DNA of 64,000 nucleotides from Candidatus Lindowbacteria bacterium RIFCSPLOWO2_12_FULL_62_27 (GCA_001784175.1 MFPR01000004.1:372001-436000), one strand, 5' to 3'. Positions 1 to 17,798 are shown, numbered from the stretch's first letter. Numbers and translations are program-made. Notes: generated from the sequence alone by a model not told the origin.

Positions 1-734
1 ACACAATGAGAGACACGGTCGAAAGCATCGATGTCGGCACCGACAAAAAGGGGGGCAGCATCGAAAGGATTTACTCCAAAAGTTTCCGGGATTTTTTTAG
101 CCGGACCTTTAAGTCCCTCGGAATCAAGATGGCAATGAATGAAATCCCGAAACTCAAGAGTCAATGGTTGAATGAAAGGCGGGCTGCTTGGATGAAGAAG
201 AATCCGGCAACGCCTGTGCCGAACCAGCGGGAACGTGCGTGGGAAGCATCATTTCCAAGACGTCTACAATTCGATATGGGCTATGGCGAAGACGTTGCGG
301 AGGTCAACCCCAAGAATGGCCCGTCGAGATTTGTTCGCGCCCAGCCTGTCAACGATCGGATTGAAGTTTGGACGAACGACGTCAGACAGGCGCAGATTCG
401 TACTGTGAAGAATCGGATTCTGTTTCGGCACATCCAGGACAATTCACCGCAGGGACGGACTCTTGAAAGAATTTTCCGGAGAAACGACATGATTCAGTTG
501 GATGCGGTTCAAAAAAGGGGGAGAAAAGGAATAACTGGAAAAAGTTACGAGGCCGGTGAATATATGGTCGTTAAAATCGAGAAAGGCGGAAAATTTACGG
601 CCGTTCCGGCGCACAGGGGGAAAGGCAGAGAAAATCAGCGCCAAGTTTCGCAGCGTGAAATCGCCAAACTGTGCGGGGTTTCGCTTTCTCCGAAAAGGCG
701 GAAGCCATCCCGCTCAACGAGCGAAAGCGGTTGA
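1..734 (+). CDS. cas9: C-terminal fragment (WED + PAM-interacting-like region) of a probable Cas9, type II-C-like; 5' end lies outside the window
   Basis: Frame is open from the window edge. Motif order matches the II-C Cas9 C-terminus as I recall it for NmeCas9: TMRDTVES (~HMETVKS), PRRLQF (~VKAVRV), NDRIEVW (~MVRVDVF), IFRRNDMIQL (~SLHPNDLVEV), then a basic tail. It lies upstream of cas1-cas2-cas4 and an array. RuvC/HNH are not visible. Confidence 0.7.
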   Translation, partial: TMRDTVESIDVGTDKKGGSIERIYSKSFRDFFSRTFKSLGIKMAMNEIPKLKSQWLNERRAAWMKKNPATPVPNQRERAWEASFPRRLQFDMGYGEDVAEVNPKNGPSRFVRAQPVNDRIEVWTNDVRQAQIRTVKNRILFRHIQDNSPQGRTLERIFRRNDMIQLDAVQKRGRKGITGKSYEAGEYMVVKIEKGGKFTAVPAHRGKGRENQRQVSQREIAKLCGVSLSPKRRKPSRSTSESG

Positions 735-785
735 CAAACTTGTTTTTCAACCGTCGGATCCGAACGACGCGCGGCACCCATCAAG

Positions 786-814
786 TTGACATCCCCGGCG
801 TCCGTACGGATACT
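786..814 (+). promoter_or_regulatory. sigma70-like promoter upstream of the DUF4160/DUF2442 pair
   Basis: TTGACA (786-791), 17 nt, GATACT (809-814). Confidence 0.6.
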
Positions 815-907
815 CAATTATCAGTTCAGACATACTCCCCGTCTTCCCATCGGGTCCTTCAGGATAGCCGAGACCAGGATGCCGGGTAGATTCTTTTTGG
901 AGGTCGG

Positions 908-1144
908 ATGCCGACGGTCTTAAGAAAGGGGCCGTATCGTTTTTTCTTTTTTGCCGGTGATCGCGGCGAGCCGCCGCACGTTCACGTTGAGCGTGACAAC
1001 AAGGTCGCCAAGTTTTGGCTGGAACCGGTTCGGTTGTGCGGGAGCGGGGGATTCTCACGGGCTGAAATTCGCCGGATACTCAAGTTGGTGTTCGCTTATG
1101 CGAGTGAATTGAAGGAGGCGTGGCATGCGTACTTCAACGGTTAG
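908..1144 (+). CDS. DUF4160 family protein (putative toxin of a DUF4160/DUF2442 TA pair)
   Basis: MPTVLR..PYRFFF..D..EPPHVHV...AKFWL family signature; GGAGG RBS. Confidence 0.85.
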   Translation: MPTVLRKGPYRFFFFAGDRGEPPHVHVERDNKVAKFWLEPVRLCGSGGFSRAEIRRILKLVFAYASELKEAWHAYFNG

Positions 1145-1454
1145 GACGGAAACGCCGCTTGCGGAAGACGTGACGCTGACGGCCGACACGATCCATGTCG
1201 ATTTGAGCGACGGCAGAACCATCTCCGCGCCGCTGGCGTGGTTTCCGAGGCTTCTAAACGCGTCGCAAAAGGAAAGAGACAACTGGCGGCTGATCGGCAA
1301 GGGACAGGGCCTGCATTGGGAAGACATCGACGAGGATATCAGCGTTGGGAATCTCCTGATGGGTCAGGCATCCGGCGAAAGTCAGCAGTCTTTCGAGAAG
1401 TGGCTCTCGGCAAGGAAACCCCGCCGTTCAACCTCACACGGACAGCGACGCTGA
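1125..1454 (+). CDS. DUF2442 family protein (putative antitoxin)
   Basis: V.LSDGR.IS.PLAWFPRL...G.GLHW.DIDEDIS signature; overlaps the DUF4160 gene. Confidence 0.85.
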   Translation: MRTSTVRTETPLAEDVTLTADTIHVDLSDGRTISAPLAWFPRLLNASQKERDNWRLIGKGQGLHWEDIDEDISVGNLLMGQASGESQQSFEKWLSARKPRRSTSHGQRR

Positions 1455-1473
1455 ATACAAAAAAGTGAATATC

Positions 1474-1502
1474 TTGAAATCCCGTCAACCGGACGGTAAA
1501 CT
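1474..1502 (+). promoter_or_regulatory. sigma70-like promoter for wHTH-TIR-cas1-cas2-cas4
   Basis: TTGAAA (1474-1479), 17 nt, TAAACT (1497-1502); GGAGG RBS before ATG 1550. Confidence 0.55.
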
Positions 1503-1549
1503 CGAGTCGTGAAAAGAAAACGATTCCGCTCGACATCGGAGGTGGCCGT

Positions 1550-1834
1550 ATGAAAAAGGAAATGACGGTTGAAATTCCGTTCGGGGACGAAGGATATTCC
1601 GTTTTGAGCCACTTGAGAAATCTTTTCGTCCATCCGCTGGGCGAAGGCATGCCTCATAACGACCTTTCACTTTCCACAACTACCGGCATTCGAATTCCGC
1701 GGCTACGGAAGATTCTGGCAGTGTTTGAAAAAAGTGGATTTGTCAGTATCGAGCGGTCAGGGAACTACCGATGGTTTATATGGATTGAGGGGGAGGGCCT
1801 TCAAGTGTGTGAGAAAATGATGAAGGCGGGATAG
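1550..1834 (+). CDS. small winged helix-turn-helix protein
   Basis: LS..TGI...RLRKIL..FEKSGFVS.ER pattern typical of wHTH; good RBS. Confidence 0.55.
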   Translation: MKKEMTVEIPFGDEGYSVLSHLRNLFVHPLGEGMPHNDLSLSTTTGIRIPRLRKILAVFEKSGFVSIERSGNYRWFIWIEGEGLQVCEKMMKAG

Positions 1835-1845
1835 GCGGAACGAAG

Positions 1846-2292
1846 TTGGTAAAGACTGTTTTTATCGCGCACGACTATTATGAAATAGGGGGCCGAAAAA
1901 GGAAGTACCGGCGTCTTATATCAACAGCCCTCAAACATACCGGCTTTCGTCCCACCTATGCCGATCACGCCATCCAAAACGTTTCAATATTGAAGGAAAT
2001 CATTCGGAAAATTAGAAACGCCTCTTTCTGCATTTTGGACATCACAGGCCGCAAAAAAAGTACGGCGCTGAATCTGAACGTTCTTCTGGAACTCGGGATG
2101 GCCTATGGCGCCGGCAGGCCGGCCTTTCTGATCTACGAAGAGCGGAGTGTCCATCCATCCCTCATCAAGGAGATTTCCGACCTGGGAAATGAATTGCACT
2201 TTCCCTACCGCGGCCTTAACGCACTTCCGATTCTAATCAGAAAAACCATTCTCGACGTTGTAAGGAGAAGCCGTCCCCGAAAGGGGCGTTGA
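1846..2292 (+). CDS. TIR-like / nucleoside 2-deoxyribosyltransferase-like domain protein
   Basis: VFIAH...AD...I..I..ASFCILDIT...N.NVLLELGMAYG.GRP..LI...SDL motif with the conserved Glu (ELG); TTG start. Confidence 0.7.
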   Translation: MVKTVFIAHDYYEIGGRKRKYRRLISTALKHTGFRPTYADHAIQNVSILKEIIRKIRNASFCILDITGRKKSTALNLNVLLELGMAYGAGRPAFLIYEERSVHPSLIKEISDLGNELHFPYRGLNALPILIRKTILDVVRRSRPRKGR

Positions 2293-2308
2293 CGACAAGC
2301 CGCCCCTG

Positions 2309-3487
2309 ATGCCCTTCTCCGACGCTCATCGCATCGAACCTCCCCCGCAGCAGATCAATTTGCTGACCGGCGAACCGGAAATGCCGTCCGCGCGGGTCGA
2401 ACATTTGCCGGTGGACGACGTCCCTTACACGCTGGAGGACGGCATCACGGTGGTGCAAAGCCCGTCGGGACTGACGGCGTCCATTTCGGGCAACGGCTGT
2501 CATGTCGGCAAACGAAGCGAGCGGCTGGTCATACGGAAGAAAGACGGCCGGGCGGTGTGGCAGATTCCGATGGCGCGCCTGCACGAAATCATCCTCGACG
2601 CGCGAGGCCTGTCGATCACGACCGATCTTCTGACGGCGCTGGCCGAACGGGGGATCCGCACCAGCATCATCGCGTTCAACGGCAAGCCGGTGGCGGAGAT
2701 CGCTTCGCCGCTTCTGACGGCCGTGGTCGAAACGCGCAAGGCGCAATTCGAGGCGCTGACCAACGGACGGGGACTGCGGCTCGCCAAGGCTGTTGTCGCC
2801 GGAAAAATCCGGAACCAACTGCGGCTTCTGAAATATTTCGGAAAATATATTTCCACTTCCCAGCCTGACCTGTTTTCCTCCCTGCAGGAGGACATCTCCG
2901 CAATGGATGACGCGCGGAGGGGGATAGAACAGGTCGCGGAAACCTCGCTCGACGAAACCCGCGCACAACTGATGGGCATCGAGGGACAGGCCGGGCAGAG
3001 GTATTGGTCCGCCGTCGGCCGGATCATCGGCGGGCGCGTACCGTTTCCGGGACGCACGCATCGCGGCGCATCGGATCCCGTCAACGTCATGCTGAATTTC
3101 GGATACGGCGTTTTGTATTCGCAAGTTTGGGGCGCGGTACATTTCGCGGGGCTGGAACCGTTCGCCGGATTTCTTCACACCGACCGGGCCGGCAAGCCCA
3201 GCCTCGTTTTCGACATGGTCGAGGAATTTCGCGCGCCGGTGGTCGACCGGACGGTCATTTCTATGGCGCAACTCGGCCAGGTGCGTGCGCTCAGGACGCC
3301 GGGAATGCTGGACGGCGATCTGAAAACGGAATTCCTGTCGAAACTCTTGGAACGCATCGACGGGACGGAATCCTTCGACGGCGGGAAATACAGAATTCGT
3401 TCGATTATTCAAAAACAATGCCGGCTGGCGGCGTCCTTCATTCGAGGCTCGATCGAGGAATATCGGCCGTTCCGGTTCAAGTGGTAG
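2309..3487 (+). CDS. cas1: CRISPR-associated endonuclease Cas1
   Basis: GKIRNQ, LMGIEG.A...YW, DPVN.MLNFGY, GL.P..GFLH, LVFDMVEEFR..VVDR. Confidence 0.97.
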   Translation: MPFSDAHRIEPPPQQINLLTGEPEMPSARVEHLPVDDVPYTLEDGITVVQSPSGLTASISGNGCHVGKRSERLVIRKKDGRAVWQIPMARLHEIILDARGLSITTDLLTALAERGIRTSIIAFNGKPVAEIASPLLTAVVETRKAQFEALTNGRGLRLAKAVVAGKIRNQLRLLKYFGKYISTSQPDLFSSLQEDISAMDDARRGIEQVAETSLDETRAQLMGIEGQAGQRYWSAVGRIIGGRVPFPGRTHRGASDPVNVMLNFGYGVLYSQVWGAVHFAGLEPFAGFLHTDRAGKPSLVFDMVEEFRAPVVDRTVISMAQLGQVRALRTPGMLDGDLKTEFLSKLLERIDGTESFDGGKYRIRSIIQKQCRLAASFIRGSIEEYRPFRFKW

Positions 3488-3491
3488 AACG

Positions 3492-3827
3492 ATGGCCGAC
3501 ATGCGCTGTCTCGTCGTCTATGACATCGAGGAGGACAAAGCGCGGACGAAAATCAGCGAGGCGTGCCTGGATTTTGGGCTGGAGAGAATTCAGATGAGCG
3601 CGTTTTGGGGACTCCTGTCGCGTACGCGCCAGCGCGAGCTCTATCACCGGATCAAGCGGCTTCTGGGGGATGGGTACGGGCGTTTCTTCATTCAGCCCAT
3701 TTGCGCGCACGACGAGGACACACGATTCATTCACGAACAGGGCGACCCCGGCGACCGGACGCTCCTGCGGTCGCTCATTGAGGAACAAAAGACGCGGGAT
3801 CAGGCGCGCGTCCTGAAATTCGAATGA
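3492..3827 (+). CDS. cas2: CRISPR-associated Cas2
   Basis: LVVYDI..DK.R.KI...C.DFGLERIQ.SAF; follows cas1. Confidence 0.95.
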   Translation: MADMRCLVVYDIEEDKARTKISEACLDFGLERIQMSAFWGLLSRTRQRELYHRIKRLLGDGYGRFFIQPICAHDEDTRFIHEQGDPGDRTLLRSLIEEQKTRDQARVLKFE

Positions 3828-4414
3828 CGCCGGCCGCTTCGGACATCGTCACGGTCAGCGATTTGAAACAGTTCGCCTTTTGCCCGCGCATCCCCTATTT
3901 TTCCAGAGTCATGCCGATCCGGCCTCCGGCCACGGAGCTGATGGAACGAGGTCAGCGGTTGGAGGAGGAATTTCGGCGGCTGGAGGTGCGGCGAAGCTTG
4001 GGCCGATACGGATGGGACCGGGCAACAAGACATTTCAGCGTATACGCGATGAGTGAATCATGCGGCATCGCCGGTCGGATCGATCTGGCGCTCGAACGCG
4101 ATGACGCCGTTGCCATCGTTGACGTGAAGGCGAGCGGGGGATTTGTCGGAGACAATCACCGGATGCAGGCGGCGGCGTATCAGGTATTGGCCGGCGAGCA
4201 TTTCGGCAAACCCTGTATTGGCGCGTTCATGTATTTTCTGGATCGCCGATGTGTGGAACGTCTGGAGCCGGACGCCGCATGGAACGAACGACTCCGGCGA
4301 GCAATAGACACCATTCGGGCCATGTCAACAACCCACGATTTCCCGCCCGCAACGGCACATCGCAAAGCCTGCGAGCAATGCGAATATCGCAATTTCTGCG
4401 GCGATGTATTCTGA
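3824..4414 (+). CDS. cas4: CRISPR-associated exonuclease Cas4
   Basis: N-terminal Cys (FCPR), GRID, VDVK, Q..AY, C-terminal C..C.Y...C Fe-S ligands. Confidence 0.95.
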   Translation: MTPAASDIVTVSDLKQFAFCPRIPYFSRVMPIRPPATELMERGQRLEEEFRRLEVRRSLGRYGWDRATRHFSVYAMSESCGIAGRIDLALERDDAVAIVDVKASGGFVGDNHRMQAAAYQVLAGEHFGKPCIGAFMYFLDRRCVERLEPDAAWNERLRRAIDTIRAMSTTHDFPPATAHRKACEQCEYRNFCGDVF

Positions 4415-4515
4415 TTTCGCAAATATCCCGGCAAATTTCGCAAGCTTGACGCTTGCGAAATGTGCCTCACTCATTCCGAACCCAACTCACACAGCTTCAT
4501 AACTGCGGAGCGGGA
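4415..4515. promoter_or_regulatory. CRISPR leader-like region with an 11-bp inverted repeat (4435-4445 / 4451-4461)
   Basis: Non-coding stretch between cas4 and the first repeat; ATTTCGCAAGC...GCTTGCGAAAT. Confidence 0.6.
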
Positions 4516-4769
4516 ATTGTAGTCCCGCTCAAAAAAAATTCAAGGGTGAAAGCAGATACTCGTCTCACAGAAGTCTCTGACAAATTTATTGTAGTCCCGC
4601 TCAAAAAAAATTCAAGGGTGAAAGCCATGGCCGCTCTCGCAAGCGGCGGGGGCCGCGGATTGTAGTCCCGCTCAAAAAAAATTCAAGGGTGAAAGTCACA
4701 ACATCCGTATGCGCTTGAATCCACTCTTTGATATTGTAGTCCCGCTCAAAAAAAATTCAAGGGTGAAAG
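4516..4769. CRISPR. CRISPR array: 4 identical 37-bp repeats ATTGTAGTCCCGCTCAAAAAAAATTCAAGGGTGAAAG and 3 spacers (35, 34, 37 bp)
   Basis: Repeats at 4516-4552, 4588-4624, 4659-4695, 4733-4769 with unique spacers; adjacent to cas genes. Confidence 0.98.
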
Positions 4770-4789: not shown

Positions 4790-4827
4790 CCCCCCTTTAT
4801 CCCCCCTTGTAAAGGGGGGAAAGAGGG
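4790..4827. repeat. REP-like palindrome / possible terminator between the array and the lysC 3' end
   Basis: TCCCCCCTT-GTA-AAGGGGGGA hairpin (4800-4820) with imperfect outer arms. Confidence 0.6.
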
Positions 4828-4840
4828 CGGTTATCCCCGG

Positions 4841-6112
4841 TCAGGCGCCGGCGGCGACGGGGGCTTGCCGGCCGAGTTCGAACGCGGCGTGGAGCCGGCG
4901 GACGGCCTCGTCGGCCTTGGACCGGCTGATGATGCAACTGACCTTGATTTCGCTGGTCGAGATCATCTCGATGTTGACGCCGGCCGCGGCCAGGGACTTG
5001 AACATCTTTGCGGCCACACCGGCATGGGACCGCATGCCGACGCCGACGATCGAGACTTTGGCCACGTCGTCCGAAAAGACAATGCTGCCGCCGCTCAGGT
5101 CTTTCAGCACCGGTTTCAGCCGCTCCACCGCGCGTTTAAGATCGGTGGAGGCGACGGTGAAGGCGATGTCGTTCTTGCCGATCTCGTGTTCCGACGAGGA
5201 CTGGACGATCATGTCGACGTTGATGTTGGATTCGGCCAGGCCGCCGAAGAGTTTCGCGGCGACGCCGGGGACGTCCGGCAGGTCAATGGCGGTGATCCGC
5301 GCCTGGTCCTTGTCGGCGGCCACGGCGCGGACAATGGGTCGTTCCATCATGGGTGTTTCTTCCTCCTCGATGATCCAACTGCCGGCGTTCCCGTTGAGGC
5401 TGGACCGCACGTGCAGGGGAATGTTGTATTTTTTGGCGAACTCGATCGACCGGTTCATCATGACCTTGGCGCCGAGCGAGGCCAGCTCGAGCATTTCGTC
5501 GAAATAAATCCGCTCGATCTTCCGCGCTTCCGGCACCACCCGCGGGTCGGCGGTGTAGATGCCGTCCACGTCCGTGTAGACCTCGCACACGTCCGCCTTG
5601 AGCGCGACCGCGAGGGCGACGGCCGTGGTGTCGGAACCGCCGCGGCCGAGGGTGGTGATGTCGTTGGAGGCGTCGAGCCCCTGGAATCCGGCGCAGACGG
5701 CGATGTTGCCGTTGGTGATTTCCTTCTGGAGCCGGGTGCCGTCGATTTCGACGATCCGCGCCTTGGTGTGGACGCTGTCGGTCCGGATGCCCAGTTGCGG
5801 CGCGAAAAACGCGGCGGCCTTCTCGCCTTCCGCCTGGATCGCCATTGCCAGAAGCGCGCTCGATATCTGTTCGCCGGCGCTCATGAGCAAATCCATCTCG
5901 CGGTCCGGCGGGTCCGCGTTGATTTTTTTTGAGAGATCGATCAGGTCGTCCGTCGTGTCGCCCATCGCCGACACCACCACCACGCAGCGGTTCCCCTCGC
6001 GCTTCTTGTCGATGATCCGCCGCGCCACGTTCTTCATCCGGTCGGGATTGGCGACCGAACTGCCGCCGAACTTCATGACGACGAGCGGCCGATGTTCTCG
6101 GTCGCCGGACAC
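4841..6112 (-). CDS. lysC: aspartate kinase
   Basis: VMKFGGSSV, VVSAMGDTTD, TLGRGGSDTTAV, ACT domains; GTG start inferred. Confidence 0.95.
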   Translation of the reverse strand: MSGDREHRPLVVMKFGGSSVANPDRMKNVARRIIDKKREGNRCVVVVSAMGDTTDDLIDLSKKINADPPDREMDLLMSAGEQISSALLAMAIQAEGEKAAAFFAPQLGIRTDSVHTKARIVEIDGTRLQKEITNGNIAVCAGFQGLDASNDITTLGRGGSDTTAVALAVALKADVCEVYTDVDGIYTADPRVVPEARKIERIYFDEMLELASLGAKVMMNRSIEFAKKYNIPLHVRSSLNGNAGSWIIEEEETPMMERPIVRAVAADKDQARITAIDLPDVPGVAAKLFGGLAESNINVDMIVQSSSEHEIGKNDIAFTVASTDLKRAVERLKPVLKDLSGGSIVFSDDVAKVSIVGVGMRSHAGVAAKMFKSLAAAGVNIEMISTSEIKVSCIISRSKADEAVRRLHAAFELGRQAPVAAGA

Positions 6113-6114
6113 GG

Positions 6115-7344
6115 CTAGAGGGCCTCCCGGGAATGGATGAATTTCTCCCGCAGGATCGTATGCGCCATGATCGGCCGCGCCGACCGGGCGGCCAGGCGCT
6201 CGGTGAATCGCGGCATGCCCCGCGTCAAAGGATGCTTCGAATCCCAGATCACATACGGCACCGGGTCGCTCGTGTGCGTGCCGATCGAACACGGGGTCGG
6301 ATGGTCCGGCATGGCGAGCACCCGGACGCGGTCGGGCCACCGGGACACTTCGGCCAGAATCGGCGCCACGATCTTGTGGTCGATCACTTCGATCATCTTT
6401 TTCTTCATGGCCGCGTTCCGGTCGTGACCCGCCTCGTCCGGCGCCTCGATGTGAAGGTACACCATCTCCTTCTGTTTCAGCTCCCGCAGCGCCGCCGTCC
6501 GCTTCTCGTCAAAGTCCGTGTCGTAATAGCCGGTGGCCCGCTTCAGGTTCACAACCGTCAGACCCACCAGCTTGCCCAGGCCGCGCACGAGGTCCACGCC
6601 GGAAACGACCGCGCCCGATACCCCGAACCGCTCGCGCAGCGTCGGAAGGCGCTTGCCCTCGCCCTGCGCCCACAGCCACATCATGTTCGCGGGACGCTTC
6701 CGGCCGCGGTTGAACGGATGCGCCTCCAGAACCTTTTGGGTTTTCATCATGATCTCCACATGCGGCAGGCTCGCGTACGGCTTCAGATGCTGCTGCACGT
6801 CCGAGCCGACCAGATCGTGCGGGCCGTCGAGATGCACCGACAGAAGCCGCGCCCGAAACGGCGCCGGCGCGCGCCAAGCCAGGGTGTGGCGGTAGCTCAC
6901 CCCGGTGTAGAGCCGCGCCTGGCTGCCCTCCAGCGATCCGTTCAGAACCTCGCGATTGACGACGGCAAGAAGCTTCTGGGCCTCTCGCGTTCCGATGTGG
7001 CCGGCGCAGTGGTCGACGATGAGGCCGTTCTTGACCGTGATGAAATTCGCGCGGAAATACAGCGTGTCGGGGCGCGCCGGAAGGCCGATCGACGCGGCCT
7101 CGATGGAGCCGCGCTGAAGCGGATACCGCGCGGGATCAAGTCCGAGAATCGACAGGTTCGCCGCGTCGCTGCCGGGCGTCACGCCCTTGGGAACGGTCCG
7201 GGCAAGGCCGACCGCCCCCTCGCGGGCCAGCCGGTCGAATCCGGGCGTCCGCGCAGCTTCAAGGGGAGTCTTGTTTCCGAGCGAGGGGACCGGTCGGTCC
7301 GCCATGCCGTCTGGAACAATAATCAGATACTTGGTCTTCAACAA
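6115..7344 (-). CDS. apgM: cofactor-independent phosphoglycerate mutase (ApgM family)
   Basis: DGMAD.P...LG.KTPLEAA.TP, GSD.ANLS, HIEAPDEAGH, DHPTP. Confidence 0.85.
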   Translation of the reverse strand: MLKTKYLIIVPDGMADRPVPSLGNKTPLEAARTPGFDRLAREGAVGLARTVPKGVTPGSDAANLSILGLDPARYPLQRGSIEAASIGLPARPDTLYFRANFITVKNGLIVDHCAGHIGTREAQKLLAVVNREVLNGSLEGSQARLYTGVSYRHTLAWRAPAPFRARLLSVHLDGPHDLVGSDVQQHLKPYASLPHVEIMMKTQKVLEAHPFNRGRKRPANMMWLWAQGEGKRLPTLRERFGVSGAVVSGVDLVRGLGKLVGLTVVNLKRATGYYDTDFDEKRTAALRELKQKEMVYLHIEAPDEAGHDRNAAMKKKMIEVIDHKIVAPILAEVSRWPDRVRVLAMPDHPTPCSIGTHTSDPVPYVIWDSKHPLTRGMPRFTERLAARSARPIMAHTILREKFIHSREAL

Positions 7345-8899: not shown

Positions 8900-10284
8900 G
8901 GCGCGGCGCGGCCGGCGACCGGATAGACGCAGTTGCGGATGGAGAAGCGCGCCGCGGGCCGGGCGTTGCCGCTTTTTTTCCGTCCCCCGAACGGCAGCCG
9001 CCCGGAGGCGCCGATCGTGCCGACATTCCAGTTCACGATCCCGTGCGTGGTTTCGTTCAGCATTTTTTCAAAGACGGGCCGGCGGCGCGTGAATACGGAA
9101 AGCGCCAGCCCGTAGTCCGTGTCCTCGACGCGCGCGATGGCTTCGGCCGCGTCGCCAAACGGATACAGCCCGACTTCCGGAACGAACAACTCCTCCGACG
9201 TGTACCGGCGCCGGCCCGGATAGCGGTCGAACCGGTGCGCGGACAGCCGCACGAAGTGACCGCGCGCCGTGTCGAATCGGCCGCCGGCCAGCAGGGGCCG
9301 GCCGCCCAGCCGGCGCGCTTCCCGGATCGCCGATTCGGCCCGGCACGCGGCGTCGGCCGAAATCAGCGGGCCGCAAAAAATTTCCGGATCGGCCGGGTCG
9401 CCCACTTGAAACGTTCGGGCCAGGGAAACAAATTTATCGCAAAATTCATCGAACGCCCCCCGCTCGACAAATATCCTGGACGTCGACGTGCATCGCTGGC
9501 CCGCCGTCGCAAACGCGCTCTGCGCGCATTCCGCGGCGGCCTGCGACAGGTCCGCGTCGGCGAACACGACCGCCGCGTTTTTTCCGCCCATCTCGAGCGC
9601 CAGCAGTTTGTCCGGCGGATCGTGCGCGATCGATTTCAGGCGCTGCCCCACGGCATAGGAACCCGTGAACAGGACCGCCGACACGTCCGGATGGGCCGCC
9701 AGACGCTCGCCCACGGCGCCCGGACCGCACACGACGTTCAACACGCCGCGCGGGAAACCGGCGCGGGCCGCGCAGTCCGCGTAGAGAAGACCGGTCCGGC
9801 AGGATTTGTCCGAGGGCTTGAACACCACCGTGTTTCCCGCGAGAAGCGCCGGCACGATGTGGCCCTGCGGCAGATGCAGAGGGAAATTGAACGGCCCCAG
9901 CACCGCGCAGACGCCGTAGGGCCGATACACGCAATAGGCGTCCGGTCCGGCGGCGGGCGCGGCCAACTCCAATTTGGCGGTTTCGAGTGTGACATCGATT
10001 TTTGACAGGAGAAGCTGCGCCTCCTCTCTGGCCTCCCGGATCGCCTTCCCGGTTTCCCTGCAGATCGACCAGGCAAGCGCGTCGCCTTGCCGGGCGAGAA
10101 TCTGCCGGAACCTGACCAGCGCGCGAACCCGGTGCGCCGGCGGCAGACACGACCACGCCCCAAATGTTTTTCGCGCCCGCGCCACCGCCGCGTCGGCGGC
10201 CGGCAGGCTCCATCGAAACACGCCGATGCGATCGGAGAGGTTCGCCGGATTGACCGACTGAATCTCTCCGTGTCCCGCCGGCAT
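8896..10284 (-). CDS. astD: aldehyde dehydrogenase, succinylglutamate-semialdehyde dehydrogenase-like
   Basis: GPFNFPLHLP.GHIVPALLAGNTVVFKPS, LEMGGKN, GQRCTS, GAS..LPFGG...SGN.RP; next to astA. Confidence 0.8.
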   Translation of the reverse strand: MPAGHGEIQSVNPANLSDRIGVFRWSLPAADAAVARARKTFGAWSCLPPAHRVRALVRFRQILARQGDALAWSICRETGKAIREAREEAQLLLSKIDVTLETAKLELAAPAAGPDAYCVYRPYGVCAVLGPFNFPLHLPQGHIVPALLAGNTVVFKPSDKSCRTGLLYADCAARAGFPRGVLNVVCGPGAVGERLAAHPDVSAVLFTGSYAVGQRLKSIAHDPPDKLLALEMGGKNAAVVFADADLSQAAAECAQSAFATAGQRCTSTSRIFVERGAFDEFCDKFVSLARTFQVGDPADPEIFCGPLISADAACRAESAIREARRLGGRPLLAGGRFDTARGHFVRLSAHRFDRYPGRRRYTSEELFVPEVGLYPFGDAAEAIARVEDTDYGLALSVFTRRRPVFEKMLNETTHGIVNWNVGTIGASGRLPFGGRKKSGNARPAARFSIRNCVYPVAGRAAP

Positions 10285-11300
10285 CAGAGAGGAAGCACTG
10301 CGGCCGGGCGGCCCCGCGGAAGCGACAGGAGTTTGAGGACCGCCGGGGACACCGCCACCTCCTTGTCCGAGACCTCGGCCGGCGCGGCGCAGGCGCGGAA
10401 ATCCGCGCCGGCGCCCGCGCCGATCAGCACGGCCGGCCCCTGGATCGGCCCTTGTTTAGGAACGGCCCGCAGGACCCGGCACCGCTTGATGAGGGTGACT
10501 TCGTCAAACCGCGCGCGCAGGTGCGGGCCGCCGTCGAAGGGACAGACCTCGTCGGTGTACCGAAAGCCGATGTGTTCCAGCATCTCTTTTGCCGGCCGCG
10601 TCTTCGGATGGACCGCGCCGATGAGCTTGCGGACTTTTTCCGGCAGAAGGTTCATGTAGAGGAGGGTGTGGGGGAAGAGGGAAAACATGAATTCCGCGTT
10701 GGTCCGGCACTTGGCGTTCGCCTCCTTGTAGTCCATGCCCGTGAATTTCTTGCCGATGTGCTCCCAGAACGGCGAACCTCCGGATTTGTCGAGCGGCGGC
10801 AGAAGCTCGGCGAGGATTTCCGGCCGATATTTGTCCGGATGCATCGCCATGTAGAGGAACCGCACGTACGAGATGAGTTTGCCGAGGCGGTCCGGATGCG
10901 ACCGGTATCGCTCGTCGAGGATGAGGCCTCCGATTTCGGTGATGCCCTCCGGGTTCCACTCGAGCTTCAAACACGTGTGCGTGAACCGCCGGTCCATCGT
11001 CCGGCTGTGTTTTTCGATGTTGATCAGCTTGAAACAAATGTGCGGCCGGTTCACGATCCCGTGCTTGTCGATGATCTGCGAAGAGCCGACCACGGCCCGG
11101 CGGCGGGGATCCTCCAGCACAAAGACGTAGTGCCCGAAGGTCCATGACTTTTTTCGCGCGGCAAACGATTCCACCGACCGCCGGATGATCTCGAGGATGA
11201 CGGACTCGTCGTACGGCAGGTTGATTGAGTCAAGCTTCCGGGCCAGCCGCATGAGGGCCGGCAGGTCGGCCGGCCGCGCCGGCCTGAGGAGCCAGGTCAC
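10284..11300 (-). CDS. astA: arginine N-succinyltransferase
   Basis: RPA...DL..L, Y.FVLED, TEIGGL.L, SPFW...G..F..MD..EA, PFDGGP; GTG start inferred. Confidence 0.85.
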   Translation of the reverse strand: MTWLLRPARPADLPALMRLARKLDSINLPYDESVILEIIRRSVESFAARKKSWTFGHYVFVLEDPRRRAVVGSSQIIDKHGIVNRPHICFKLINIEKHSRTMDRRFTHTCLKLEWNPEGITEIGGLILDERYRSHPDRLGKLISYVRFLYMAMHPDKYRPEILAELLPPLDKSGGSPFWEHIGKKFTGMDYKEANAKCRTNAEFMFSLFPHTLLYMNLLPEKVRKLIGAVHPKTRPAKEMLEHIGFRYTDEVCPFDGGPHLRARFDEVTLIKRCRVLRAVPKQGPIQGPAVLIGAGAGADFRACAAPAEVSDKEVAVSPAVLKLLSLPRGRPAAVLPL

Positions 11301-11328
11301 TCGCGGGGTTCCGGATGCGTCAGGCGGG

Positions 11329-12366
11329 CTACTTGCGCCTGGATTTGGATTTGGTCTTCGACGCCTTCTTCCGGAACTCCGGGATGATCTCCTTGCTGTA
11401 GGTCTCGACAATCCTCTCCTCCTCGCCGCACATGAGGTAGATGTTGAACTGGGTCATCCCGCCGGCCTCCAGCTCCCGGAGTTTCGCCACGTGCGCGTCG
11501 ACGTCGCCGATCACCGAAAACCGGTCGACGATCGCCTCGGGAATGAAATCGAGATGATCGGCGTCCTTGTCGGCGTGATGCCGGTAGTCGTAGCCCTTCC
11601 GGCCCTTGATGTAGTCGGTCAGCGCCTGCGGAACCTCCCCGCTGTGATACCGCTCGACGAGGTCCGCCACGTGGTTGCCGACCATGGCGGGAAACCACCG
11701 CACCTGGGCGCGGCACTTCTTGAGATCCTTCGAAATGAACACCGGCGCGGCCACCATGATCTCGATATCGCCGGCATCCCGGCCGCACTCCTTCGCGCCA
11801 TCGACAACCTGGCTGATGAACCATTTCACGAGAAAGGGGTCGGCGATCTGCAGGACAATCCCGTCCGCATGTTTGGCCGAGGCCCGCAGAACCTTGGGGC
11901 CGTAGCCGGCGATCCACATCGGCAGGGGATACTTTGGATTGGCCCAGTTGAACCACTGCTCCTTGCCCTCGTGCTCGACCTTCCCGCCCGCAGCCATCGT
12001 CCGGATTTTTTCAACCCCGGCCATCATCTCGTCCACCGTCGTCGGCTTGAACCCCATCACACGGCGCGAGCTGTCGCCCCGGCCGATCCCGCACACCGCG
12101 CGGCCCTTCGAAATCAGGTTCAGCGCCGCAAAATTGCTCGCGGTCACCGTCAGGTCCCGCACGGCCGGGTTGGTCACGCACGGCCCGAGCTTCACTTTCT
12201 CGGTCCCGGTCGCGAGGTAGGTCAGCATCGTGTAGCATTCTTTCCAGAGGATATGCGAATCAAACGTCCAGACGTACGAAAATCCGCCTTTCTCCGCAGC
12301 CTTGGCCAGTTTCATTGTCCGTTCCGGCGGGATGTCTCCTTTAAAGCAGATGGCAAACTCGAGCAT
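11329..12366 (-). CDS. LLM-class flavin/F420-dependent oxidoreductase (TIGR03842-like)
   Basis: WTFDSHILW, GPCVTNP, GIGRGDS, LQIADP, MVGNHVADLV; AGGAGG RBS. Confidence 0.8.
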   Translation of the reverse strand: MLEFAICFKGDIPPERTMKLAKAAEKGGFSYVWTFDSHILWKECYTMLTYLATGTEKVKLGPCVTNPAVRDLTVTASNFAALNLISKGRAVCGIGRGDSSRRVMGFKPTTVDEMMAGVEKIRTMAAGGKVEHEGKEQWFNWANPKYPLPMWIAGYGPKVLRASAKHADGIVLQIADPFLVKWFISQVVDGAKECGRDAGDIEIMVAAPVFISKDLKKCRAQVRWFPAMVGNHVADLVERYHSGEVPQALTDYIKGRKGYDYRHHADKDADHLDFIPEAIVDRFSVIGDVDAHVAKLRELEAGGMTQFNIYLMCGEEERIVETYSKEIIPEFRKKASKTKSKSRRK

Positions 12367-12501
12367 TGGGTTTCCTCCTGTTTTCAATGTGGAAAGGCTA
12401 TATATACTCCGCCAGAACCCATCTTTCAAGCATTTTGTGAACTCATCGACGCGAGAACATGCCACCGCCGGGACAGCCCCTCCAAGGTCTGGCGGCCGAA
12501 A

Positions 12502-15500
12502 TTATGCCTTGAGTACTTCGACCAATTCCGCGATGACTTTCAACTCGGCAGCCTCGGCGGCCGACAGAACCCTGGCCTCATATCTTGATTCGTCGCTGGA
12601 CGGTTTAAGCTCGATCTTTGTATGACGCCAGGAATCCCCCGGCGCGTCGATCTTCTCGCTTTCGTACACCTTAACGGTGTAGGAACCTCCGTGGTCCGGG
12701 TCCTCAATCGAATGGTGTTGAACGAGCAATACCCGTCCAGTCCGATCACCGACGACGGGCGTACGGAAAATACAATAAGACCCGTTTGGTATCCGAAGAT
12801 TCATCGATTCACCCTCTACCCTCGCCACAAAGAGCCCGCGGGCCGGTTTGGTTTTTCCCAGCGGTTGTATCCATGCTTCAGGCGTTTCTTCCGCCTCGAT
12901 TTCCCGCGCCTCTCCGAATTTTCCGGCGGCCGCTTTCAGCGAATACAGGGGAATACAGTTCTCAAACGGCCGCGCCTCCGCCTCGGATAGGACCCGGAAC
13001 GGTCGCGTGTCCACAGGTTCTTTTTCAACCCACTCATCCGCAATCAACTCCGCCTGTTCGAGCACGGTCTGCGTCGCCTTTTCCTGTTTGTCCGGCGGGT
13101 AGCCATATTTTCGGAGCACGCGTTTGACCAGGACACGGAGTTTAGCGCGCACCGATTCTCTGACCGTCCAATCGATCGACACGTTGCCGCGCACGGTCTG
13201 AACCAGCTCTCGCGCGATCGTCTTGAGCGTGTCGTCGCCCAGAACCTTGACGGCGCTGTCGTTGACTTCGAGCGCCTCGTAAAACGCGATTTCGTCATCG
13301 GACAATCCGAGCAATTCACCTCGACGGGTCGACTCGCGCATTTCCTTGGCCAATTTGATCAGTTCCTCGATCACCTGCGCGGCCTCGACGGCGCGGTTGT
13401 GATACGCCCGGATCGACCGCTCCAACATTTCCGCGAACGAACGCGACTGGACGAGATTTCGTTTGGAACGCGTCTTGATTTCTTCGGACAGGAGTTTTCG
13501 CAAAAGTTCGACGGCCAGATTTCGGTGCGGCATCGCGCGGACTTCGGCCAGAAATTCGTCCGACAGAATCGAGATATCGGGTTTCTTGAGGCCGGCGGCC
13601 GCGAAGATGTCCACGATCTGATCGGATGCCACGGCACGCGAGACGATCTGGCGAATCGCGTGATCGAGTTCGTCCACCGGCCGGGGTGGGCCGCCGGTTC
13701 CACCCATTTTGACCAGCGCCGACCGCACGGCCTGAAAAAACGCCACGTCGTCGCGGATTCGAAACGCCTCTACATGAGGCACGGCAAGGGCAAAAGCCTG
13801 TGACAGTTCCGTGACCGCTTTCATCAGCCGATCCCGGCCTTCCTCCTGTTTCAGAATATGCTCCTGCGCGGCCGGAAGGAGTGCCAAACGTTCCGCGGGC
13901 GTGCCGGCGGTCCAGAGCGTCCGATCAAATCCATGAAACAGCCCGCAACAAATCTCGTATTTTTCCTGCATCACGGCGACCGCCTCGCTCTGGTCGATGG
14001 CCGTCGCGCCCGTGCCGCCGCTTTCGGTGTAATCGGCAAGCGCGCGTTTCAAGTCATGGGCCAGGCCAAGGTAATCCACCACAAGGCCGCCGGGTTTATC
14101 CTTGAAGACGCGGTTCACTCGCGCGATGGCCTGCATGAGGCCGTGGCTGCGCATCGGTTTGTCGACATACATTGTGTGAAGGCACGGCGCGTCAAAGCCG
14201 GTCAGCCACATGTCGCGCACGATCACGATGCGGAACGGGTCGGTCGCGTCTTTGAACCGGGTGGCCATCTTCTCCCGCCGTGGTTTGTTGCGGATGTGCG
14301 TCTGCCAGTCGAGCGGATCCGTCGCCGAACCCGTCATCACGATTTTGATCGTCCCGCGCGTGTCGTCTCCGTCGTGCCATGCCGGGCGCATGGCCACGAT
14401 CGCTTTGTAGAGTTCGACACAAATCCGGCGGCTCATACAGACGATCATGGCCTTGCCGTCCAGCGCCTCAAGCCGCCGCTCAAAGTGCTCCACCAGGTCT
14501 TTGGCAATCAGCCCAACGCGTTTCTCCGAACCTACCACGGCTTCCAGCGCCGCCCACTTTGTCTTGAGCTTCTCTTTCCGCGAGACTTCCTCGCCCTCGG
14601 TCGCTTCGTCAAATTCCTCGTCCACCTTGGGCTTCTCACGTTCGGCCAGTTCCAGTTTTGCCAGCCGGCTTTCGTAATAGATGGGAACGGTCGCTCCGTC
14701 CTCCACCGCGCGCTGGATATCATAAATGCTGATGTAATCGCCGAACACGGCGCGGGTGTTGGCGTCGGTCTTTTCGATGGGCGTGCCGGTGAACCCGATA
14801 AATGAAGCGTTCGGCAAAGCGTCGCGCATGTGCCGGGCGAATCCGTCGATGAAATCGTATTGGCTCCTGTGCGCCTCATCCGCGATTACCACGATGTTGC
14901 GGCGGTCGGAGAGCAACGGATGCCGATCACCTTTTTCCTCCGGAAAAAATTTCTGGATTGTCGTAAATATCACGCCGCCGGACGCCACCTGCAGACGCTC
15001 CCGCAGTTGGGCGCGGCTCTCGGATTGAGCGGGCTTTTGCCGAAGAAGATCGTGACAGCGTGCGAATGTCCCAAACAACTGGTCGTCCAGATCATTTCTG
15101 TCGGTGAGCACCACAATCGTCGGGTTCTGCATCGCCGGATGGAGGATCAACTTGCCCGCGTAGAATACCATGGTGAGACTCTTGCCCGATCCCTGGGTAT
15201 GCCACACAACGCCACAGCGTTTGTCGCCTTTGGGGCTTGCGGCCTGTACCGTGGTATCGATCGCCTTTTGGACCGCATGAAACTGATGGTAGCCCGCCAT
15301 CTTTTTGAGAACCGTTCCGCCCTCTTCCTCCTCAAAAACGATAAAATGCCGGACGAGTTCAAGAAACCGCCGCCTGTCAAACACGCCGCGCATGAGCGCT
15401 TCCAACTGGGGCATAGTCGCCGGCGCCAAGTCCTCGCCCTCAATGGTCCGCCACGGCATGAACCGTTCCCGGTCGGCCGTCAATGTTCCGATCCGCGCTT

Positions 15501-16101
15501 CAAGCCCGTCGGAAATAATGAGCGCCTCGTTGAAAACAAAAAGCGAAGGAATCTGTTGTTTGTACGTCTGAAACTGGTTGAAGGCCGTCCAGATGGTGGC
15601 ATTCTCATCGGCGGGATTTTTGAGTTCAATCACGGCCAGCGGCAACCCGTTCACAAAAACAACTACGTCCGGCCGCCGATTGTGCTGACCCTCGACGACC
15701 GTGAACTGATTGACGGCCAGCCAGTCGTTGGCGGCGAGATCGTTAAAATCCACAAGCCGAACCCGGTCCCCCGCGATCGTCCCGTCCGTCCGGCGATACT
15801 CAACCTCGACACCGTCAACAAGCATCCGGTGGAACGCGCGATTGCATTGTACGGGCGACGCATGCGTCGCCCCTACGCGAATCACTTTTCGGAACGCCTC
15901 GTCAATCGCCTCCGCCGGGATTTCCGGATTGAGTTTCCGCATCGCCCGGCGCAGTCGATCCGGCAATATAGCCTCGCCGTAATCTTGCCGCTCTGCCGCC
16001 TCCTCGCCCGGAGCGATGTCCGGCCCGTGCAAAACGGCGTATCCGAGCTCACCAAACCACGCGAGCGTGGCGTCTTCGACGGTGGATTCGGTGAGGGTCA
16101 C
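12502..16101 (-). CDS. hsdR: type I restriction endonuclease subunit R with a C-terminal S24 peptidase-like domain
   Basis: [55 protein letters not shown]-terminal AAAG...GESM...TVK. Confidence 0.95.
15849..15876 (-). repeat. GTAG-type REP palindrome inside hsdR
   Basis: Minus strand GTAGGGGCGACGCATGCGTCGCCCGTAC; perfect 20-bp palindrome 15853-15872; encodes VGATHASPV. Confidence 0.75.
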
Positions 16102-16121
16102 GGCTTAATGAGCACGATCTG

Positions 16122-16601
16122 CTACGGAGCCTGCATCTTCCTAAACTTGGCCAGATACTCCGAAACGAATTCATCCCGATACTTGCAATCGATATTTTTT
16201 GAATCCAGCAGAGGTTTCAGTCTCGTATCGGTTGTCACGATGACGCACTTCTGAATGGTGAAATAGGCCTGGAGTATGTAGTGATCATCCGGATTGACTT
16301 GTTTCTGAAGGTCGCCCCATAACGGCTTCAGTTGCCCGGCTTCGATGCGTATGGTTTTGACGGAGTTTGACCAAAACTCGCTCCTATAAAACTTCGCGAT
16401 TTTCCGAAGTGTTGCGTCAAAGCCCGCATTTTTCCAAAAATTAAAGGTCTTCCGTTCAAACTTGCTTCCCTTGACGATAACTATCGGATTGCAAATCGTT
16501 CGAATGGCAAGCAGAAAGGCGGACGCTTGCTTCTGGCGCTCAACGCCATTCTCCCCCAAGAGGTCGGCCCATAACCACTCATCAAGGATCAAAGGCGACA
16601 T
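16122..16601 (-). CDS. PIN-domain-like protein
   Basis: N-terminal LILDE, PDDHYIL..Y and VIVTTD..L acidic motifs. Confidence 0.55.
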   Translation of the reverse strand: MSPLILDEWLWADLLGENGVERQKQASAFLLAIRTICNPIVIVKGSKFERKTFNFWKNAGFDATLRKIAKFYRSEFWSNSVKTIRIEAGQLKPLWGDLQKQVNPDDHYILQAYFTIQKCVIVTTDTRLKPLLDSKNIDCKYRDEFVSEYLAKFRKMQAP

Positions 16602-16613
16602 ATACCCAACTCA

Positions 16614-17798
16614 TTAGACGCCGGTGAATTTCTTCAAATCCTCGATCTCAGCCTCTATGAACGACGTAAGCCCTCCGTCAATTTGTCCCTTTTCATTAAT
16701 TTTTTGCGGCTGAAATTTCGTCGTCTTTTTTTCTTTGAGCGTGAGATAACAGCCTATGTCAGACGGACTCGCGATCCCTTCGGAAACAGCAGTCGCGATC
16801 GAGGACACAAACTGCTCACTGTGAGTGGTAAGGAGGACCTGTTTGCCTTCATCTTTGACGAACGCGCAGAGCGCCCTTGCAAAATTTCTAATGACAGTGG
16901 GGTGCAGATGAACCTCCGGCTCTTCAATCAAAACCGTGGAAATCTCCGGCCGGTAGAGCTTGGCCCACAAATAAACCACCTGATTAATTCCAAAGCCGTC
17001 ATTGATCAAATTGACGGGGATTCTCGATTGCTTGTCCGTGGTCTGCATGAATACAGTTGCGGTACCGGCGGGAGTGTAGGTGCGAAAATCCCGCCCAAAG
17101 ATATCTTCGAGATACGTCGAAATACGTCCGGCCATGTGCTGATCGTTGATGATGATGGACGCCACTTCGTCTTCCGACGTGGGCAGCGGAGAAATGGCAA
17201 CGGGCGTGTAATTGTATTTGAAAAATCCCCGTTTGTGCGGAACGATGTCGATGGCTTTCAGACGTTCCGGCACGGAATTGATCAAGGCGGCTATCTCCGC
17301 CGCTTTTTGCTGTTTTTCGGCAGTGGCATTTTTGGGAACCACCGATCCGCCAACGCCGTTCCAATTGATTGTGTATTCTTCGCCGCTGTCGGTATGGCTA
17401 AACGGAAAATTTTGATTGAGTCCATACGGAATAGCGACTTTGCCCTTCAGGTTTATAGAGGCGATTTGAAGCGATATGTCCGCCGACGCTTTCGACAAAG
17501 ACAGCCCGTATGAAGCTTCAACTCCATTTTTGGCGTAGCGGACGGAAAACTCGACGCTTCTCTTATCATCGTGATCAAAAACACAGGCATTCAAGCCGCC
17601 CATATCCATAAACCCGATATGGAAAAATCCGTCCACAGGTCTATTCGGGTTCAATATGAAATTTCGAAGCGTCATCAGAGAATAGAGGACAGTCGACTTG
17701 CCAGCCGCCGTCGGTCCGTAAAAGACGGTGATGGGAGACAGATTCAATTCCTCCGACTCTACTGAACGAAAATTCTTTAAACTAATTTTTGTCAGCAT
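16614..17798 (-). CDS. ABC/AAA-type ATPase (AAA_15/AAA_21-like)
   Basis: LKNFRS, Walker A GPTAAGKST, DGFGINQ, Walker B LIEEPEVHLHP, TTHSE. Confidence 0.85.
   Translation of the reverse strand: MLTKISLKNFRSVESEELNLSPITVFYGPTAAGKSTVLYSLMTLRNFILNPNRPVDGFFHIGFMDMGGLNACVFDHDDKRSVEFSVRYAKNGVEASYGLSLSKASADISLQIASINLKGKVAIPYGLNQNFPFSHTDSGEEYTINWNGVGGSVVPKNATAEKQQKAAEIAALINSVPERLKAIDIVPHKRGFFKYNYTPVAISPLPTSEDEVASIIINDQHMAGRISTYLEDIFGRDFRTYTPAGTATVFMQTTDKQSRIPVNLINDGFGINQVVYLWAKLYRPEISTVLIEEPEVHLHPTVIRNFARALCAFVKDEGKQVLLTTHSEQFVSSIATAVSEGIASPSDIGCYLTLKEKKTTKFQPQKINEKGQIDGGLTSFIEAEIEDLKKFTGV

Follow-up and report, generated by a model that had tools for sequence, protein, structure and literature searches.

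A probable subtype II-D CRISPR-Cas locus with a large Cas9d in an uncultured bacterium

The locus, its effector and its adaptation genes

We analysed a 64,000-nucleotide stretch of DNA (the window, G000:C4:372001-436000) of Candidatus Lindowbacteria bacterium RIFCSPLOWO2_12_FULL_62_27, whose left end carries a CRISPR-Cas locus with a Cas9 effector. The source genome, G000, is a metagenome-assembled genome (MAG; 94% complete, 1.09% contamination) with a 4.39-Mb assembly, and its phylum is represented by four species genomes in our collection; a sister genome in the same phylum, G002, holds the locus L006, and the other L numbers denote related loci that were collected. Sequence across the left border was read from L002 (C4:360001-377000), where a window position equals the L002 position minus 12000 and negative positions lie left of the window. 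The genes follow the order cas9d, DUF4160, DUF2442, a winged-helix (wHTH) gene, a "TIR-like" gene, cas1, cas2, cas4 and the CRISPR array. An earlier note on positions 1-4769 had listed a truncated open reading frame (ORF), a toxin-antitoxin pair, the wHTH and TIR-like genes, cas1-cas2-cas4 and an array of 37-bp repeats, all of which were found in place; that stretch omits about 77% of cas9d together with the gene and promoter of the trans-activating CRISPR RNA (tracrRNA), all upstream of the window. With these parts added, the region reads as a complete subtype II-D CRISPR-Cas locus of an uncultured bacterium, to which we give a probability of about 0.85 on the basis of its predicted genes and RNAs.

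The whole cas9d gene spans L002:9603-12734 (window -2397..734, plus strand) and encodes 1043 aa, and the window itself keeps its 3' end at 1..734, that is codons 801-1043 with the WED/PI end (ORF 3-734, 243 aa, open at the window start). The open frame reaches L002:9531-12734, and we took the ATG at L002 9603 as the likely start because it directly precedes the NCBIfam match and the sequence ahead of it is assigned to the tracrRNA. The truncated frame had been suspected to belong to a Cas9, and the retrieved upstream sequence bore this out, as RuvC-I (GIDFG, D21), an Arg-rich bridge helix (residues 54-77), RuvC-II (ITIEFP, E452), an HNH domain of the Cys4 type (CVYC557, D570/H571, N594) and RuvC-III (NHAQDA, H723/D726) are all present in the 1043-aa ORF. 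Cys/His clusters are found at C274/C277/C368/H371 and also at CPHC464 and CPSC498. When 17 sequences were aligned, D21, E452, D570/H571/N594, H723/D726, C274, C277, C368 and H371 were invariant. Zn-ribbon motifs are given as a II-D trait in PMC9755519 and a CCCH site in PMC11903963 (here and below, the cited papers are represented by excerpts of their text), and this Cys/His feature of II-D is present in the effector as a predicted metal site.

The NCBI Cas9d model NF049971 was passed with 452 bits (cut-off 375), and the locus was therefore assigned to II-D. The general Cas9 (Csn1) model TIGR01865 gave 81.1 bits, below its cut-off of 100, and the II-B Cas9/Csx12 model TIGR03031 gave 12.8 bits, far below its cut-off of 399.4. 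It had been proposed that the system is not an ordinary II-C one, which agrees with the TIGR01865 score and the presence of cas4, and the TIGR03031 score likewise places the effector outside II-B. The six best PDB sequence matches were all Cas9d chains (8zq9/9auf, 9k32, 8w2z, 8w2s, 9lgi and 8zdr; E 5e-21 to 1e-18), with the alignment to solved Cas9d limited to three short stretches. The full-length model was mediocre (pLDDT 71, pTM 0.42; TM about 0.25 to solved Cas9s), and only its ranking was used: all 50 of the best listed Foldseek matches were Cas9, led by the II-D enzyme NbaCas9 (9k32, E 4e-22), so that the comparison of folds also sided with the Cas9 assignment. A search of 5.8 billion protein clusters returned 48 matches to Cas9d, the best non-self match being 44% identical, and these relatives are mostly 950-1100 aa long and come from MAGs of Terriglobales, Nitrospirae and similar lineages. 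When genome contigs were searched for related loci with a single Cas9d query, none was found; an alignment-based scan found 15 loci.

At the other end of the locus, cas1 (2309-3487, plus strand) encodes 392 aa with PF01867 at 234.8 bits over residues 59-326 and TIGR00287 at 233.9 bits, cas2 (3492-3827, plus strand) encodes 111 aa with PF09827 at 55.4 bits and TIGR01573 at 47 bits, and cas4 (3824-4414, plus strand) encodes a 196-aa PD-(D/E)XK nuclease with a C-terminal Cys cluster (TIGR00372, 96 bits against a cut-off of 65). The best PADLOC profiles were Cas1_II (251 bits) and Cas4_II (134.7 bits). Cas1 is 44-47% identical to the Cas1 encoded beside Cas9d in L008, L010 and L015, and for 13 of the 62 best Cas1 matches (of 120 listed, with the G002 protein excluded) the longest contig has exactly the length given for one of the 47 non-self Cas9d matches, so that these 13 very probably lie on Cas9d contigs. 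Judged by its profiles and its relatives, the adaptation module probably belongs to II-D. As described in PMC12669027, this subtype combines what was the II-C2 variant (small archaeal Cas9s) and the "early" small Cas9s, and its loci have in common cas1, cas2 and cas4, a monophyletic Cas1 and an encoded tracrRNA; PMC9755519 gives II-D effectors of 600-1050 aa with Zn-ribbon motifs, and arrays with tracrRNAs.

The same genes had been described earlier as atypical, and the locus as a chimera formed when a II-C-like Cas9 took up cas1-cas2-cas4 and a repeat of class-1-like character, giving a new hybrid of no established subtype. The NCBIfam Cas1 models lean in this direction, as the I-G, I-C and I-D models score 169-153 bits against 73 bits for the type II model NMENI; the repeat ends in GAAAG, and G000 also carries a type I-G Cas4/Cas1 fusion. 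However, none of the class-1 subtype Cas1 models reaches its cut-off, whereas the top PADLOC profiles are those of type II, and unrelated MAGs also have this module, repeat end and spacer length next to Cas9d. In our Cas1 tree the longest branch belongs to the co-resident I-G Cas1, a very distant protein, and cas1-cas2-cas4 is the defining adaptation module of II-D in the text of PMC12669027. We consider such a hybrid very improbable.

The single signs that had pointed to class 1 fare similarly. The Cas1 strings GKRSERL and GKIRNQ are both in the translation, and the N-terminal extension is present with about 58 aa, but it is common to relatives of about 410 aa and is a family trait rather than a mark of class 1; Cas1 as a whole does not look class-1-like, with Cas1_II as its top PADLOC profile and its closest Cas1s on Cas9d-carrying contigs. 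The GAAAG end is common to the repeats of nine related Cas9d loci and is the reverse complement of the 5' CUUUC in the CRISPR RNA (crRNA), and 37-nt repeats with long spacers, which had seemed unusual, are the same in related Cas9d loci and in NsCas9d, whose array has four repeats and spacers of about 37 nt (PMC12339737). A repeat ending in GTGAAAG, repeat and spacer lengths of about 37 nt and a long Cas1 are all common to the related Cas9d loci. What stands of the proposed likeness to II-C2 and kinship with ARMAN-type Cas9 is that NF049971 is passed and that II-C2 now falls within II-D; the chimera does not stand. Under the current classification, the apparent hybrid would reduce to an ordinary subtype II-D locus.

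In the Cas1 tree (32 rows), Cas1s fused to reverse transcriptase (RT) nest among the Cas9d-linked ones, with weakly supported forks and long branches, and the fusion architecture (RVT_1 plus Cas1) was present in all five fused ORFs checked. More distant Cas1 relatives (27-42% identity; L030, L032, L034, L035 and L036, all metagenome contigs) are mostly RT-Cas1 fusions of 700-870 aa. A metagenome scan with Cas1 returned the window's own contig, one 84% fragment and distant, mostly RT-fused Cas1s, with no Cas9d in the stretches covered. The type I-G Cas4g/Cas1g fusion lies at G000:C6:52155-53030 (L024 805-2514; 670 bits against a cut-off of 560) and adjoins a HerA-like ATPase fragment; its presence indicates that the organism also has a class 1 system.

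Array, tracrRNA and guide strands

The CRISPR array occupies 4516-4769, with the minus strand as its probable functional strand, and consists of four identical 37-nt repeats (4516-4552, 4588-4624, 4659-4695 and 4733-4769) and three spacers of 35, 34 and 37 nt, in line with the 34-37 nt given before. On the minus strand the repeat reads CTTTCACCCTTGAATTTTTTTTGAGCGGGACTACAAT, and on the plus strand it ends in GTGAAAG. Tandem Repeats Finder did not report the array, which was detected by a separate repeat search. Between cas4 and the first repeat lies a leader-like stretch (4415..4515) that is conserved in L006 and L027. Since the degenerate terminal repeat of L006 stands at the far end of its array, the cas4 side appears to be the insertion end, where Cas1-Cas2-Cas4 would insert new spacers.

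Elsewhere in the assembly, the repeat recurs only as a 14-nt piece upstream of cas9d. This anti-repeat, TTCAAGGGTGAAAG, lies on the cas9d strand at L002 9412-9425, 191 nt before the cas9d ATG, and a predicted sigma-70-like promoter (GTGACA-17-TATGAT, 10/12; window -2622..-2594, L002 9378-9406, plus strand) precedes it with a -10 box that ends 6 nt before the anti-repeat. As the promoter-like site ends at 9406, transcription would start at the anti-repeat. The predicted tracrRNA gene (window about -2588..-2408, plus strand) would yield an RNA of about 180 nt that runs from the anti-repeat through a structured scaffold to about 10 nt short of the cas9d ATG. The G000 tracrRNA region, which has a GC hairpin without a T-run, showed no terminator, so the tracrRNA may continue into cas9d and double as the cas9d leader. 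The 191-nt region folds better than its shuffles (z = -3.2). Rfam holds no family for the tracrRNA and gave only sub-threshold miRNA-like matches, which fall on the palindrome upstream of the promoter. This palindromic element of about 140 bp, of the GGGAGAGG family, lies just 5' of the tracrRNA promoter at about L002 9196-9340 (window -2804..-2660) and is multicopy: four runs show a high depth of contigs there, with numerous loose ends at 9213-9215 and 9258-9262.

The arrangement is shared by the relatives. Arrays were present in 10 of the 17 loci scanned, and all 10 have an anti-repeat of 12-20 nt to the same repeat end, located on the cas9d strand, between 127 and about 260 nt ahead of the gene; the one in L007 is an apparent fifth repeat copy at 283-306. 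When the ten sequences were aligned from the anti-repeat onward, TGAAAG-AAGCC and AGGGC were invariant, and RNAalifold on the ten regions gave GCCC/GGGC, 4 bp and invariant, as the only consensus stem, which fits the 4-bp nexus stem described for the Cas9d single guide RNA in PMC11903963. The region ends in a hairpin and T-run on the cas9d strand in several relatives. A locus-encoded tracrRNA, the further trait of II-D, is present here, with its expression predicted.

A plus-strand tracrRNA would require crRNAs from the minus strand of the array. The same strand is expected from the Cas9d guide geometry, in which the pairing part of the repeat has to be the one next to the spacer (PMC11903963 and PMC12339737, as excerpted), and in L008 and L014, where the array lies upstream of cas9d, it reads CTTTCA on the cas9d strand. 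The crRNA would read 5'-spacer-CUUUCACCCUUGAA...-3', and the 14-bp crRNA:tracrRNA duplex would load Cas9d, which would cut DNA adjoining a 3' protospacer-adjacent motif (PAM). We also weighed the opposite polarity, in which plus-strand crRNAs start from the cas4-side leader and a minus-strand tracrRNA lies upstream of cas9d. The 14-bp pairing is strand-symmetric, and both the AT-richer conserved leader and the degenerate repeat of L006 put the insertion end at the cas4 side. In the relatives, however, both the terminators and the conserved scaffold motifs follow the anti-repeat on the cas9d strand, and in G000 the promoter is on the plus strand, its -10 box ending 6 nt ahead of the anti-repeat. 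The paired part would moreover fall at the 3' end of the repeat, with 23 nt between it and the spacer, unlike the Cas9d guides described in the cited excerpts, and the arrangement conflicts with the 5' anti-repeat rule (PMC6546382). This polarity seems hardly credible, and we retain minus-strand crRNAs.

The repeats themselves may carry promoters. A promoter-like site, TTGAAT-16-TACAAT, is present on the minus strand in 4/4 repeats, against 0.2 expected per region from shuffles, and its -10 box is formed by the last six repeat bases, up to the border with the spacer. Short crRNAs would then start a few nucleotides inside each spacer, as in Neisseria II-C. The repeat-borne promoters are a prediction only; repeat-embedded promoters in II-C are known from Neisseria meningitidis and Campylobacter jejuni (Zhang 2013 and Dugar 2013, as cited in PMC5965381). 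Beyond the array lies a convergent aspartokinase-like gene (window 4841-6340, minus strand) whose end is 72 nt away from the last repeat; read-through from it would be an alternative source of minus-strand transcripts. An RNase III gene is present in G000.

Accessory genes, the sister locus and a self-targeting spacer

Four plus-strand genes lie between cas9d and cas1. The first two encode a toxin-like DUF4160 protein (908..1144, 78 aa; PF13711, 63.3 bits) and an antitoxin-like DUF2442 protein (1125..1454, 109 aa; PF10387, 72 bits), overlap by 20 nt and follow a promoter-like site at 786-814. We predict that they form a toxin-antitoxin pair of the DhiTA type: dhiTA of Dickeya dadantii is a validated DUF4160/DUF2442 pair with the toxin gene first (excerpt of PMC8198452), and the G000 pair shares with it both Pfam families, the leading toxin-family gene and the overlapping frames. 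It differs in that the DUF4160 protein scores 16.7 bits on NF048015 toxin_DhiT against a cut-off of 100, that its toxicity is a prediction, and that G002 keeps DUF2442 alone.

The third gene (1550..1834) encodes a predicted winged-helix DNA-binding protein of 94 aa (ArsR/MarR-like). It had no Pfam, NCBIfam or PADLOC match, and the call comes from Atlas features (0.94) and from structural similarity (TM 0.78) to HTH_20/MarR clusters only. It follows a promoter-like site at 1474-1502 and is separated by 12 nt from the fourth gene, which in turn ends 17 nt before cas1, and the two genes probably head the cas1-cas2-cas4 operon.

The fourth gene (1846..2292, 148 aa) had been called TIR-like, and PF10137 CAP12-PCTIR_TIR is indeed passed marginally (26.1 bits, cut-off 24.7; PADLOC TIR effector, 22.9 bits), but the fold is nearer to nucleoside 2'-deoxyribosyltransferase (NDT), to the CMP N-glycosidases MilB and BcmB, and to DNPH1. 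With a model of pLDDT 89.6, the nearest Foldseek matches were MilB (4ohb; E 6.7e-6, TM 0.72), NDT, BcmB and DNPH1, and the first true TIR domain appeared at rank 39. The protein carries an NxNVxxELG motif with E82, and N78, E82, G84 and Y121 were invariant in 20 sequences. A sensitive search returned 129 cluster representatives with E values of 1e-3 or lower; 7 of them reach 1e-10, and many are fused to larger proteins; close homologues number only 3 in the 5.8 billion clusters. Our best guess at its activity is that of a nucleotide N-glycosidase. With the NDT/MilB-BcmB/DNPH1 superfamily and the CAP12-Pycsar TIR families (PF05014, PF10137) it shares the flavodoxin-like fold, the Glu in NxNVxxELG and the mode of occurrence, either as a stand-alone protein of about 150 aa or, among relatives, in fusion with further domains. 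It differs from the solved members in having only 12-21% identity to them; by fold rank it is probably no canonical TIR NADase.

The position of these genes raises the question of whether they serve the CRISPR system. Ancillary functions are conceivable for the genes of the wHTH and N-glycosidase-like proteins, and maybe for the DhiTA-like pair as well, with the wHTH protein perhaps regulating the adaptation operon and the N-glycosidase-like protein perhaps acting as a nucleotide-degrading back-up effector. The close packing against cas1 and the conserved catalytic-type Glu fit this, as does the retention of both genes beside cas1 in G002 at 86-88% identity despite a changed effector and a changed DUF2442 position. 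However, in tblastn searches none of the four accessory proteins appeared in the other 15 Cas9d loci or in 18 non-self Cas1 loci, and cas9d runs directly into cas1 in L008, L009 and L010; the few close homologues of the N-glycosidase-like protein also speak against it, and G000 and G002 are close kin, so that co-inheritance suffices. We regard an ancillary role as rather unlikely. The four insertions noted earlier are real but confined to their own lineage, in which they are specific lodgers.

The sister locus differs from that of G000 in a patchy way. When L006 (G002:C51) 9397-16164 was compared with L002 9369-16685, DNA identity was 88-95% over the tracrRNA promoter and anti-repeat, the wHTH and N-glycosidase-like genes, cas1-cas2-cas4, the leader and the repeat, and protein identity was 92% for Cas1, 93% for Cas2, 89% for Cas4, 86% for the wHTH protein, 88% for the N-glycosidase-like protein and 72% for the DUF2442 protein. 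The 37-nt repeat is identical in G002 and the leader is conserved. A 63-bp island of 95% identity spans the tracrRNA promoter, the anti-repeat and AAGCCC, and from its end to the wHTH gene no DNA similarity between the two genomes was detected. The G002 scaffold is unrelated to that of G000, and its fold was not better than shuffles (z -1.5). G002 Cas9d has 998 aa and the catalytic motifs, is 27-31% identical to G000 Cas9d over two segments, stays below the NF049971 cut-off of 375 with 222 bits and gave best local alignments of 24-36% identity to each of 47 other Cas9d. DUF2442 stands at a different position in G002 and DUF4160 is absent; the array holds two spacers and a degenerate terminal repeat, and the flanking genes of the two loci show no synteny.

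Considering this pattern, we suspect that the tracrRNA scaffold and cas9d were swapped as one cassette between two II-D systems, with the break right behind the GAAAG-AAGCCC junction of the tracrRNA, which is conserved throughout, and we put the odds of this at about even. Since the repeat and scaffold motifs of G000 resemble those of its Cas9d's relatives (L009, L012), G002 would be the holder of the incoming effector. Our literature search on effector/tracrRNA module exchange found no description of such a swap, which does not prove that there is none. Provided that both loci are functional, one repeat:anti-repeat duplex would be read by two very distantly related Cas9d, with guide specificity residing wholly in the scaffold. 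If the swap is true, the junction would be a recombination point for replacing the effector, for example in escape from anti-CRISPRs, with the spacer memory kept. The sister loci, alike in repeat, anti-repeat and adaptation genes but unrelated in scaffold and effector, form a natural experiment on Cas9d guide modularity, of relevance to the design of orthogonal or exchangeable guides.

GC-rich palindromes with the core CCCCTTG[CT]AAAGGGG stand at both ends of the G000 locus (L002 9016-9050 and window about 4790-4830), and depth rises several-fold at them in public contigs. As the core occurs 17 times in the assembly, they are a dispersed repeat and no locus-specific border. Long joints in the contigs (9049 to 16804 and 9259 to 16788) were considered as an empty site and rejected, having sides of only 22 and 20 nt within multicopy flanking repeats. 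The locus sequence itself was unchanged in contigs of four DNA runs, which showed no spacer polymorphism, and spacer 2 was covered in at least run X2.

Spacer 2 (4625..4658, minus strand) appears to target its own genome, with a 34/34 match at G000:C20:107614-107647 (L022 3614-3647). The match lies within a class I/II aminotransferase gene flanked on either side by cobQ-like and cobS genes (a cobalamin operon), and the crRNA would be antisense to the aminotransferase mRNA. In the crRNA sense, the 3' flank is CGGAAGG, which suggests an NGG PAM; NGG is reported for several Cas9d including MG34-1 (PMC9755519, PMC11903963), and other Cas9d use NRC according to an excerpt of a 2026 preprint. The 5' flank, CTTTCA, equals the first six repeat bases, which may be chance. 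Spacers 1 and 3 had no exact match in viral contigs, spacer 2 had none at up to 3 mismatches in G001-G003, and the two spacers of G002 find no match beyond their own array, G000 included.

An intact Cas9d beside a perfect self-target suggests a site without a true PAM, silenced interference, or the presence of an inhibitor. One reading that is compatible with the II-D assignment is a silenced or decaying system, its genes intact and its interference off through an anti-CRISPR, repression or lack of crRNA expression. It would explain both the tolerated self-spacer, whose match is complete and flanked by CGG, and the tiny arrays of three spacers in G000 and two plus a degenerate repeat in G002; the unchanged locus across the four runs is in its favour too. 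On the other side, the four cas ORFs and every catalytic residue are intact, the PAM is only predicted so that the self-site may not be cleavable, and the target contig is linked to the locus contig by MAG binning alone. Silencing is conceivable, but we hold it doubtful. An intact effector with a perfect self-targeting spacer is a classic signpost for anti-CRISPR hunting. Should the cassette exchange be true, the self-spacer would point to an undiscovered Cas9d inhibitor in G000; no anti-CRISPR against Cas9d turned up in the excerpts of the Cas9d literature, in which no search aimed at anti-CRISPRs was made.

Several points weigh against the assignment to a complete II-D system. The Cas1 tree does not separate the Cas9d-linked Cas1s as one clade from the RT-fused Cas1s, and the consensus tracrRNA structure shows no covariation. 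The strands and transcript ends of crRNA and tracrRNA are predictions from the sequence. The repeat-borne promoter amounts to one independent match, 9/12 to the consensus, and by formal criteria it is found in only one of nine distinct related repeats, with near misses in L008 and L014. The PAM is drawn from a single protospacer, and other Cas9d in the cited excerpts differ in PAM. Lastly, a perfect self-target together with arrays of three (G000) and two (G002) spacers suggests that interference or adaptation may be off.

Comparison with known systems

Compared with the II-C systems of N. meningitidis and C. jejuni, the locus is similar in having in each repeat a promoter-like element whose -10 box stands at the end of the repeat, in an expected crRNA start inside the spacer, and in an array read toward the cas genes. 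It differs in that its promoters are predicted only, that the effector falls short of TIGR01865 (81.1 against 100), and that cas4 is present, whereas II-C has cas9-cas1-cas2 without it; with RNase III encoded in G000, processing may also occur. The former II-C2 systems (ARMAN/Micrarchaeota Cas9, "Cas9c2" of 900-1050 aa, PMC9755519) share the gene order cas9-cas1-cas2-cas4 and the effector size, and are hosted by DPANN archaea in contrast to the bacterial host here, a comparison made by their published description.

The G000 locus is a known kind of system, and its new part is an uncharacterised member with a large Cas9d. With the II-D enzymes Cas9d-MG34-1, NsCas9d and NbaCas9 (Aliaga Goltsman 2022, PMC9755519; PMC11903963; PMC12339737), it shares the RuvC and HNH domains, the Arg-rich bridge helix and the Cys/His clusters, and with their systems cas1-cas2-cas4, repeats of about 37 nt, long spacers, and a tracrRNA that is long and structured and has a short GCCC/GGGC nexus stem. 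No Cas9d of the clade of about 1000-1100 aa was seen among the solved structures, nor, as far as seen in the literature, has one been tested. As the guide-RNA parts of a large-clade Cas9d are now defined, reconstitution becomes possible. Against the solved systems, the G000 effector has 1043 aa where theirs have 736-762 aa, the predicted anti-repeat is 14 nt where their guides pair over 17-18 bp, and four additional genes separate cas9d from cas1.

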